Shown: positions 1-1,063 of the stretch, one piece after another
Layout of the letters: every line of letters starts with the position of its first letter
Numbering within the stretch: position 1 is the stretch's first letter
Source of the DNA: a virus
Length of the DNA: 64,000 bases
Virus record (IMG/VR): IMGVR_UViG_3300005077_000003
Coordinates: 32,001-96,000 of that record
Direction: 5' to 3' (one strand)
Notes under the pieces: model-generated
Seen by the model: the letters and a program-made list of their open reading frames with translations, nothing else
Databases searched by the model: none
What the model was told of the DNA's origin: nothing
Translations under genes and position numbers: made by a program

Positions 1-311
1 TTCTCACCATTTGATTTCTCAAATGGGGCACCTGCTTCAAGCCAGCTATGTAGTCTTGCGTGTTGTGATTTAGTTAGGATTAGTAAATTAGAGCACCTAT
101 TATCTTCCCTAATACCATTTAGGTGATGTACAACTTCATCTTTATGAAGTTGTCTTCCTAATGATTGTTCGGCAAAATAAATGTGTTCATATACCCATCC
201 TAGCCAGTTCTCACACTTCATCGAGCTTGGGTGATCTGGCATATATATCACCCGATACCCGTTTAATATTCGGACTTTTATAGCTAACTCGTTAGATTCT
301 TGTTCTTTCAT
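1..311 (-). CDS. HNH homing endonuclease (3' end off window; not in ORF track)
   Basis: Manual translation: MKEQESNELAIKVRILNGYRVIYMPDHP...YEHIYFAEQSLGRQLHKDEVVHHLNGIREDNRCSNLLILTKSQHARLH, a typical phage HNH pattern. Open to position 1. Confidence 0.88.
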   Translation of the reverse strand, partial: MKEQESNELAIKVRILNGYRVIYMPDHPSSMKCENWLGWVYEHIYFAEQSLGRQLHKDEVVHHLNGIREDNRCSNLLILTKSQHARLHSWLEAGAPFEKSNGE

Positions 312-359
312 GCAGATATTATCGTAACATCTACATGTGAACCTTAAACCTAAGTTCAG

Positions 360-396
360 ATGAGGCGATTGCTCTAACCGACTGAGCTAAGAGCCC
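360..396 (-). tRNA. tRNA-Ile2/Met (CAU), 5' half only, interrupted immediately after the anticodon
   Basis: Minus strand GGGCTCT-TA-GCTC-AGTCGGTTA-GAGC-A-ATCGC-CT-CAT, then non-tRNA sequence. D-arm is perfect and the sequence resembles bacterial Ile2 tRNAs. The 3' half is not in the window. Confidence 0.8.
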
Positions 397-460: not shown

Positions 461-1063
461 TTAAATCGTTTCATTAATCATCATTCTTCGGACCATATTA
501 GTAATACCAGGATTTACATATGATTTAATTACTGGTACTACATGACTGCGCAAATTAGTGCGCAGATCGTCTCCTACGCTACTAATAGTAGTAATAGAAT
601 TGCGATCGCACCAACTGATAAACCTATACTTAGGAGTAAGTCTAAATGGTCTAAAGATGAATGTGTCATATTTTTCAGAGTATCTAAAGTACGGGATAAC
701 ACTAGAAAACCCCCTTTTTAGTGTGCTAATAATATATTCTTCTACACAGTCATCAAGATGATGACAAGTAATTACTGGTATATTTTGACTATGCAACCAT
801 TCATATCTCTCTTCCCTAAAGTAAGCTTCAGAAGTATCTGAGCTATCTAAAATAACTCCTTCTTTATAAGAAAGATGGTGCGTACCACAATAATTTAAAA
901 CGATTTCTCTGCCTTTCCTGCTTTCCTGAGTTCCATGGTGAAAGAATAGTGCGGTTACTTCCTTTTTCCCCTTTCGTAAAAAGTCAAGTACCGCCATACT
1001 ATCAGGCCCACCACTAACAGCTACTCCTACTTTATTAGGGATGGTTCCTTGGATTTTAATCAT
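461..1063 (-). CDS. tilS: tRNA(Ile)-lysidine synthetase, N-terminal PP-loop domain only
   Basis: VAVSGGPDS PP-loop, FFHHG, R..RY, TCHHLDDCVE, RPF, RTNLRSHVVP motifs. 200 aa, lacks the usual C-terminal domains. Confidence 0.85.
   Translation of the reverse strand: MIKIQGTIPNKVGVAVSGGPDSMAVLDFLRKGKKEVTALFFHHGTQESRKGREIVLNYCGTHHLSYKEGVILDSSDTSEAYFREERYEWLHSQNIPVITCHHLDDCVEEYIISTLKRGFSSVIPYFRYSEKYDTFIFRPFRLTPKYRFISWCDRNSITTISSVGDDLRTNLRSHVVPVIKSYVNPGITNMVRRMMINETI

Follow-up and report, generated by a model that had tools for sequence, protein, structure and literature searches.

A probably mobile group I intron in a phage tRNA(CAU) gene, with an HNH endonuclease reading frame threaded through its ribozyme core

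A phage tRNA gene that breaks off at its own anticodon, and is followed on the same strand by the reading frame of a putative homing endonuclease, raises the question of whether the endonuclease gene has landed in the tRNA gene and destroyed it, or is carried by an intron that can still be removed from the transcript. This arrangement lies at the start of the window, i.e., the whole 64,000-nt stretch of DNA analysed here, which corresponds to C1:32001-96000 of a viral record (C1) of 177,611 bp with 36.4% GC. The flanking DNA, C1:22001-34000 (L002), was read together with the window, in which a position equals the L002 position minus 10000. Within the pre-tRNA, positions are given as p, where p 1 is the first G of the tRNA (window 396), the window position is 397 - p, and the C1 position is 32397 - p. 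The whole split-tRNA locus is found on the minus strand, with the following features.

Window 461-1063, minus strand: TilS-like PP-loop ATPase gene, 200 aa, directly upstream of the tRNA (context, outside the intron)
Window 396-360, minus strand: tRNA(CAU) 5' exon, 37 nt, ending in the anticodon CAT (362-360), with the 5' splice site after the U at 360
Window 359 to 403 nt beyond the window start, minus strand: group I intron, 763 nt, its first 359 nt inside the window
Window 338-343 (intron nt 17-22), minus strand: GGTTCA, T-loop-like box, at the same offset from the insertion point as the real T-loop box, within 1 nt
Window 311 (ATG 311-309) to -246, L002 10311-9754, minus strand: predicted HNH homing-endonuclease ORF, 185 aa (PF13392, PHROG 15471)
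C1 31756-31754 (window -244 to -246), minus strand: UGA stop of the HNH ORF
C1 31597-32000 (window 0 to -403), minus strand: remainder of the intron, with the terminal G at C1 31597
C1 31596-31560, minus strand: 3' exon, 37 nt, beginning AAGCGAT, followed by CCA at 31559-31557

The 5' exon (window 396-360, minus strand: GGGCTCT TA GCTC AGTCGGTTA GAGC A ATCGC CT CAT) comprises, in this order, the 5' strand of the acceptor stem, the D arm, the 5' strand of the anticodon stem, and the loop ending in CAT. At the other end of the insert, ...AAACGTG, whose terminal G is the last nucleotide of the intron, is followed by AAGCGAT, and the 3' junction and exon read ...CTAGCACAAACGTG / AAGCGAT AGGTC GTTGG TTCGAAC CCAAC AGAGCCC A CCA, where the slash marks the splice site; the junctions overall are thus CAT/C...G/AAGCGAT. 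When the exons are joined, they form a perfect 77-nt cloverleaf with the anticodon CAU, CCA included. An earlier note on this DNA, made from the window, had described a perfect tRNA 5' half ending in CAT at 360, an insert placed exactly after the anticodon, and an HNH reading frame some 50 nt further on the same strand, and had predicted a group I core beyond position 1, a terminal G, and a 3' exon starting roughly AA-GCGAT. All of these are borne out, with an ATG 48 nt after the CAT in a frame that matches PF13392, a core recognized by Infernal, and AAGCGAT in exactly the predicted form.

When introns are allowed, ARAGORN reports one split tRNA at C1 c[31557,32396], an 840-nt gene with a 763-nt intron, and when they are not, it reports no tRNA at the locus. 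The program's label, tRNA-Gln(CUG), which is obtained by moving the junction by 2 nt, was rejected because it leaves a C at -1 and because the resulting "anticodon" varies between relatives (ctg, ttg, tcg, cgg...), whereas CAU is invariant, as is the whole of CTCAT in all 30 aligned pre-tRNAs.

These observations bear directly on the opening question. The insertion of a free-standing HNH gene that destroyed the tRNA gene, with no intron involved, would be in keeping with the many homologs that sit in phage tRNA arrays with no group I core around them, but it is refuted by the presence of the 3' half, a complete group I core, and the terminal G, which leaves it a negligible probability. As these three are all where they were predicted to be (the core with E 4e-14), the split tRNA with its intron is not a chance arrangement, and together with the HNH ORF they support the suggestion, made in the earlier note, of an endonuclease-carrying group I intron in a phage tRNA. 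Our reading, which we hold with high confidence, is that a mobile group I intron of class Ile2.5Ug (the Azoarcus type) interrupts a phage tRNA(CAU), most likely the AUA-reading tRNA-Ile2, between nt 36 and 37.

The core itself was located through a match to Rfam RF00028 (Infernal; L002 10048-9604, minus strand), with 62.2 bits against a gathering score of 50, over model positions 1-253. Its elements can be assigned as follows.

Window 357-362, minus strand: P1 5' strand, exon CAU and intron CUG, pairing with CAGGUG at 34-29
Window 29-34, minus strand: IGS (P1 3' strand), CAGGUG, in ORF codons 93-95, Ala93-Gly94-Ala95
p 35-40 with 363-368, minus strand: P1, CAU/CUG with CAG·GUG, U37·G366 at the splice site
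p 371-378 with 383-390 (window 7-26), minus strand: P2, 8 bp, GAAA tetraloop, encoding Pro96-Gly102
p 397-403 with 727-733, minus strand: P3
p 407-412 with 647-652, minus strand: P4
p 416-421 (UCUAAG) with 639-643 (UAUGA), minus strand: P5, resembling an 11-nt tetraloop receptor
p 421-428 with 632-639, minus strand: P5a, a long-range helix
p 659-665 with 670-676, minus strand: P6
p 685 and 687-691 with 766-771, minus strand: P7, with a bulged A
p 692-721, minus strand: P7.1-like hairpin
p 734-759, minus strand: P8
p 772-774 with 797-799, minus strand: P9.0
p 779-790, minus strand: P9, with a GAAA loop
p 800, minus strand: omegaG, G800 being invariant among relatives

The proposed structure was evaluated on an alignment of 30 pre-tRNAs, comprising this phage and 29 other loci (26 from metagenomes and 3 from GTDB genome records), against slid controls in which the pairing partners were shifted by 1-3 columns. 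All 98 proposed pairs are standard in the phage's own copy, and across the 30 pre-tRNAs 88.0% of the cells are paired, versus 31-43% in the slid controls, with double changes at 71 of the 98 pairs and a covariation score of 0.535, compared with no more than 0.124 in the slid controls and reached by none of the 500 shuffles. Some of the strongest support is for helices that have their 5' strand within the ORF (P3 96%, P4 98%, and P5 98% paired), with covariation at 5 of the 7 pairs of P3 and double, i.e., compensatory, changes at all eight pairs of P2. In addition, P7 is 100% paired, and P9.0 covaries at 3 of its 3 pairs.

In P1, the C-G, A-U, and U·G pairs, the last of them at the splice site, are invariant in 30 of 30 copies, and the fourth pair is C-G in 26, A-U in one (a compensatory change), and U-G in one, while the GGUG of the IGS is invariant or nearly so among the 30 relatives. 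The absence of a convincing IGS within the window, as recorded in the earlier note, does not hold, given that CAGGUG is present at window 34-29, inside codons of the ORF; the core was not visible to that reader because the window ends exactly at the border between J2/3 and P3. An alternative IGS, GUGAG (window 5-1, in J2/3), which would form 5 bp with CUCAU, was rejected, as it lies 3' of P2 and is unconserved in the relatives. No convincing P10 was found in this intron. A hairpin of 6-7 bp is also found directly after the 5' splice site (window 337-359, minus strand; UGAACUU...AAGGUUCA), in competition with the two outermost pairs of P1. Only about half of the relatives have its GAAC arm, whereas its GUUC is nearly invariant.

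The reading frame carried by the intron matches Pfam HNH_3 (PF13392; E 2.7e-10, 40 bits, cutoff 24.8) and PHROG 15471 (E 4e-31), and has 187 protein homologs at E <= 1e-5, the best-matching of which are 45-61% identical. The residues H63, N71, N75, and H84 are invariant in the family alignment, all 24 family-invariant residues are kept in this ORF, including the HNH His/Asn and four Cys, and the endonuclease ORF is intact and of full length. The AlphaFold model (mean pLDDT 86) has two confident domains separated by a linker, residues 101-111, with pLDDT below 50 and thus predicted to be disordered. The best structural match of the N-domain is I-HmuI (PDB 1u3e; Z 6.8, rmsd 3.0 A over 79 residues, 19% identity), and the C-domain is modelled as a three-helix HTH that matches three-helix HTH DNA binders at Z 5-6, although a sequence search of the PDB with the HNH family profile gave no match. 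No clear Shine-Dalgarno sequence was seen ahead of the ORF.

This last point, the short P1 (4-6 bp), and the presence of a single intron copy in the phage genome are what might be expected of a decaying relic, that is, of a tRNA pseudogene whose intron no longer splices or whose endonuclease is dead. We regard such decay as very improbable, given that both exons are perfect, every core pair is standard in this copy, the ORF is of full length with its 24 invariant residues, the HNH His/Asn and four Cys among them, and a TilS-like gene accompanies the tRNA in a genome rich in AUA codons.

The ORF spans p 86-643, starting in L1, running through the IGS and the 5' strands of P2, P3, P4, and P5, filling L5, and stopping in the 3' strand of P5; the earlier note's placement of it in the first loop is thus right for its start, and not for the remainder, which continues through the core. 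The correspondence between codons and ribozyme elements, all on the minus strand, is the following.

Codons 93-95: IGS
Codons 96-102: P2
Codons 104-106: P3
Codon 107: J3/4
Codons 108-109: P4
Codons 111-112: P5 receptor strand
Codons 113-115: P5a
Last three codons and the UGA stop: 3' strands of P5a and P5

In this layout, the nuclease domain is coded in the P1 loop and the DNA-binding domain in the P5 loop, and the flexible linker of about 20 aa is coded by P2-P3-P4-P5, with the IGS just upstream of it, in the conserved GAP segment. Given that the ORF runs through P1'-P2-P3-P4-P5, the disordered segment between the domains is encoded by the ribozyme core, and a stretch of about 66 nt specifies both the inter-domain segment of the protein, linker included, and P1'-P5. 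The embedded ORF corresponds to one protein, since homologs with no sign of a surrounding intron likewise have both domains in one chain. This overlap of ORF and core is real dual coding and not an artefact of annotation. The linker motif NG.NSGKSK is nearly invariant in the HNH alignment, though predicted to be disordered, and the third codon positions of the linker are the most conserved of the gene (0.75 versus about 0.5; Mann-Whitney p 0.009), while the J3/4-P4 motif is present in 20 of 22 intron-embedded IMG/VR loci versus none of 58 homologs with no sign of an intron. In some relatives there is no stop in P5 and the ORF continues through P6-P7 to end in ...EGAETSGEV, which is the literal translation of the J6/7-P7 consensus, GAAGGUGCAGAGACUAGUGGAG.

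Threading of this kind means that the passage of ribosomes and the folding of the ribozyme should exclude each other, and translation and splicing should therefore be mutually exclusive in this intron. In the overlaps known so far, the core sits at one end of the ORF, which has been explained by "core creep", and their sizes are 20 nt in I-TevI, 61 nt within P1/P2 in I-Ssp6803I, and up to 81 nt elsewhere (PMC3073962). The core of the phage intron lies, unlike these terminal overlaps, between two folded domains of the ORF.

One other element that recurs in the family is the T-loop-like box near the 5' end of the intron. A GTTCR motif starts at intron nt 17-18 in 24 of the 30 copies and at nt 17 of exon 2 in 28 of the 30, against a background rate of 0.0016 per nt. 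The possibility that the GGUUCRA box mimics a T arm at the RNA level was rejected because there is no closing stem. A global alignment of the intron 5' end with its own exon 2 was no better than that of cross pairs or shuffles, and the two share only the GTTCR box and its offset. In about 13 of the 30 relatives, the box lies between sigma-70-like -35 and -10 elements that are fixed in position and 17 nt apart, and in the intron 5' end of this phage no convincing promoter of this type was found. The T4 enzyme I-TevI reportedly represses itself through an operator within the intron that encodes it, a site similar to its homing target (Edgell et al. 2004). For the GTTCR box, a role at the DNA level seems most likely, e.g., as a putative binding site for the HTH of the enzyme, and the I-TevI operator may be its analogue.

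The identity of the interrupted tRNA was assessed from its own structure and from its surroundings. The spliced tRNA is not initiator-like: it has a G1-C72 pair and lacks three consecutive G-C pairs at the foot of the anticodon stem. The other tRNA(CAU) of the genome, at C1 c[158151,158239], outside the window, is initiator-like: it is 89 nt long (158151-158239, minus strand), with a mismatched 1-72 pair, a GGG/CCC anticodon stem, and an unusually long extra arm. The protein encoded directly upstream of the split tRNA has the SGGPDS motif, matches PF01171 (E 7e-18), and scores E 1e-19 and 71 bits against TIGR02432 (TilS N domain), below the equivalog cutoff of 93.6. TilS is its best NCBIfam match, and its only PDB sequence matches are to TilS (3a2k and 1ni5). 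Since it falls below the TIGR02432 cutoff, has 200 aa, and lacks the C-terminal tRNA-binding domains, the gene is named here TilS-like. In E. coli, the acceptor-stem determinants of TilS are C4-G69 and C5-G68, and the phage tRNA has C4-G69 but U5-A68, the two determinants being found across the family in 19 and 18 of 30, respectively.

The most serious alternative accepts the intron as described and takes the host gene to be an elongator tRNA-Met(CAU) instead of tRNA-Ile2, a reading that we consider unlikely, though less so than decay of the locus. The nearest phage tRNAs in a blastn search with the spliced tRNA are annotated "tRNA-Met", and ARAGORN agrees, but "Met" is the default label for any CAU anticodon and does not discriminate. 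The U-A at 5-68, in place of the C-G used by E. coli TilS, and the sub-cutoff score of the TilS-like protein also point in that direction. Against them stand the adjacency of the TilS-like gene to the tRNA, here and in the viral contigs L203 and L205, where an ortholog (36% identity, 1e-35) is upstream of the intron-bearing tRNA(CAU), and the codon usage of the phage, in which AUA makes up 58% of the Ile codons (ORFs of at least 150 aa, a crude ORF set) and is the main one. Similarly, in a Nomurabacteria MAG the split gene is a third tRNA(CAU), beside an initiator and a separate, intact Met-like gene. The setting was typed as Ile2 by tRNAscan-SE in the survey of Williams 2020 (bioRxiv 10.1101/2020.01.27.920355), where Ile2.5Ug is one of the four classical classes of group I introns in bacterial tRNAs, all IC3, and where introns of over about 400 bp are noted as possible holders of genes. 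The insertion between tRNA positions 36 and 37, with U-1 and omegaG, places the phage intron in class Ile2.5Ug, the IC3 label being taken from that same source. We thus favour, with good confidence, the AUA-reading tRNA-Ile2, and the earlier note's tRNA-Ile(CAU) stands as regards the CAU anticodon and is well supported, not proven, as regards Ile rather than Met.

The relatives, whose DNA was taken from GTDB genomes, metagenomes, and IMG/VR by way of the HNH homolog alignment, indicate that the arrangement recurs. The same split tRNA(CAU), with the same geometry, is present in MAGs of two CPR bacteria, Candidatus Nomurabacteria and Saccharibacteria, and in a further MAG contig, and these genome records and the metagenome set together hold 34 distinct loci, 29 of which were aligned with the phage copy. 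In IMG/VR, 21 viral contigs (5-395 kb) share this architecture, with both halves of the core confirmed by nhmmer, and RF00028 was confirmed in all eight IMG/VR contigs tested (42-83 bits, seven of them above the 50-bit threshold). In a quick tree with a midpoint root, the embedded HNH genes form one cluster inside the diversity of the non-embedded ones.

Four IMG/VR contigs, L213, L219, L220, and L225, hold the coreless HNH genes closest to the embedded clade; L213, L219, and L225 fall within the embedded cluster, and L220 in its sister group. The genes of L219, L220, and L225 are directly beside intact tRNA(CAU) genes, and that of L213 is beside a tRNA-Arg. The W..GAP (or GAK) segment that supplies the IGS is kept in L213, L219, and L220, and not in L225, and all four are without NSGKSK. 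These loci look like states before or after the invasion of the intron. Split tRNAs called by ARAGORN around other HNH homologs (L016, L027, L029, L030...) were rejected as chimeras of neighbouring intact tRNAs, with no RF00028 match.

No near-identical phage with an intron-less allele was found, and the mobility of the intron is therefore deduced from the distribution of the family alone. Intron-less tRNA(CAU) genes with an identical 19-nt anticodon arm occur in 7 viral contigs, none with this acceptor stem. Searches of IMG/VR for close phage relatives through peptide patterns of the TilS-like protein returned none, a search with the exact 5' junction pattern returned no further relative, and GenBank phages (crAss-like and huge) share with this phage only 75-130 nt of generic intron core.

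Some further observations were made in the same contigs. A phage tRNA-Leu(UAA) in the 63-kb IMG/VR contig L014 has an ORF-less group I intron (1822-2105; RF00028, 62.5 bits), inserted as CUU/.../AA, as in cyanobacteria, and the adjoining tRNA-His(GUG)-like gene (1565-1681) is interrupted after its anticodon by about 44 nt, which is not long enough for a group I intron. In the 170-kb IMG/VR contig L216, a second, ORF-less group I core (1762-1950; 59 bits) lies about 130 nt downstream of the intron-bearing tRNA(CAU), and phage tRNA arrays can therefore hold several introns. ROOL RNAs (RF03087, 280-330 bits) are found beside HNH homologs and tRNAs in L017, L019, L020, L021, and L031, with a drum RNA match also in L020 and L021. 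Near the present locus, a 2-kb island with 54-65% GC, compared with 36% GC in the phage, starts about 350 nt after the 3' end of the tRNA (L002 7150-9200, C1 29150-31200, i.e., 800-2850 nt before the window start), and a 301-aa ORF similar to DUF4406 / nucleoside-2-deoxyribosyltransferases (L002 9347-8442, minus strand) has an AT-rich start and becomes GC-rich part-way on, which could reflect a recent acquisition or a chimeric gene.

Among the closest known systems is the Azoarcus intron, in which a GUG-type IGS immediately precedes P2, both P2 and P9 are capped by GAAA tetraloops, and P5 contains a CCUAAG/UAUGG-like receptor. The phage intron shares the GUG-type IGS before P2, the GAAA of P2 and P9, and the P5 receptor, as well as the type of host tRNA, the insertion point after U36, and U-1/omegaG. 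It has, unlike Azoarcus, an extra, P7.1-like hairpin between P7 and P3', and a phage rather than a bacterium as its host. The Azoarcus intron, which also follows U36 and has a 40-nt 3' exon including CCA, is of 205 nt (PMC13168695) and without an ORF, whereas that of the phage is of 763 nt, with an HNH gene over L1 and L5. The intron in the tRNA-fMet of Synechocystis PCC 6803 is likewise a bacterial-type group I intron in a tRNA with a CAU anticodon, and carries a homing endonuclease, I-Ssp6803I, whose ORF lies in P1 and overlaps P1/P2 by 61 nt (PMC3073962). There, however, the enzyme is PD-(D/E)XK instead of HNH, the class is fMet.2Ug instead of Ile2.5Ug, and the overlap is at the end of the ORF, whereas here the core is in mid-ORF, between two folded domains.

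Resemblances extend to phage introns in other settings. I-HmuI, which is encoded in the DNA-polymerase intron of Bacillus phage SPO1, is likewise an HNH enzyme with a C-terminal HTH and is matched by the fold of the N-domain, but there is no sequence-detectable match, its target is a protein-coding gene, and its ORF lies in P8, overlapping the core by only 9 nt (PMC3073962). The T4 td intron, with I-TevI, is another case in which the ORF overlaps core elements ("core creep", PMC3073962), and its enzyme is similarly modular, with a nuclease, a zinc finger, and an HTH, although it belongs to the GIY-YIG type and only its last 20 nt overlap the core. Free-standing homing endonucleases occur in phage tRNA clusters, e.g., SegB of T4 (PMC2330249), and the nearest coreless HNH relatives of the present gene similarly adjoin intact tRNA(CAU) in phage tRNA arrays, but they differ from the intron gene in lying outside introns and in lacking the NSGKSK linker that encodes P3-P5.

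Given this anatomy, the following course of events may be proposed. The pre-tRNA would keep the body of the tRNA while the intron adopts its P1-P9 fold, in which P2 and P9 end in GAAA tetraloops, and an exogenous G would attack after U36, held in a U·G wobble with the GGUG of the IGS. The freed 3'-OH of U36 would then attack after the terminal G, which would yield the mature tRNA(CAU). Lysidine is probably formed at C34 by the TilS-like enzyme of the adjacent gene, which would allow an AT-rich phage to read its abundant AUA codons. The HNH enzyme, which is predicted to consist of an I-HmuI-like nuclease, a zinc ribbon, and an HTH, in this order, presumably introduces a nick or a cut into tRNA(CAU) genes that lack the intron, in co-infecting phages and possibly also in hosts, and the repair of the cut gene would copy the intron into it, i.e., homing.

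According to a 2014 review, every phage intron known at the time interrupted a protein-coding gene, even though phages have many tRNA genes (PMC3984707). A full-text search of the literature outside subscription journals returned no report of a group I intron in a tRNA gene of a phage, nor of an Ile2 intron carrying an HNH gene. The class Ile2.5Ug is already known; the phage host (178 kb), the HNH cargo, and the internal overlap of ORF and core are new. This locus, together with at least 21 other viral contigs, shows that phage tRNA genes do host group I introns.

On a broader view, which we put forward tentatively and rather doubt as a whole, the phage intron family may represent a distinct design of mobile intron, in which the core is threaded by the ORF, the linker is the 5' half of P2-P5, and translation and splicing are exclusive, beyond what terminal "core creep" alone would provide. 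Under this design, the GGTTCRA box may be a DNA operator or a decoy for the intron's own HNH enzyme, in autoregulation or immunity, and the intron may pass back and forth between large phages and the bacteria they infect, CPR bacteria among them, since tRNA-Ile2 is near-universal. More immediately, the intron sits in a gene that the phage probably needs, which would offer it a safe harbour, given that AUA makes up most of the Ile codons and that the tRNA is paired with a likely modifying enzyme. The layout of an ORF running through a core is a natural experiment in dual coding, which makes testable both the merging of endonuclease genes with introns and the separation of translation from splicing. 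Finally, standard tRNA finders miss such split genes, and the tRNA repertoires of phages are therefore under-counted.
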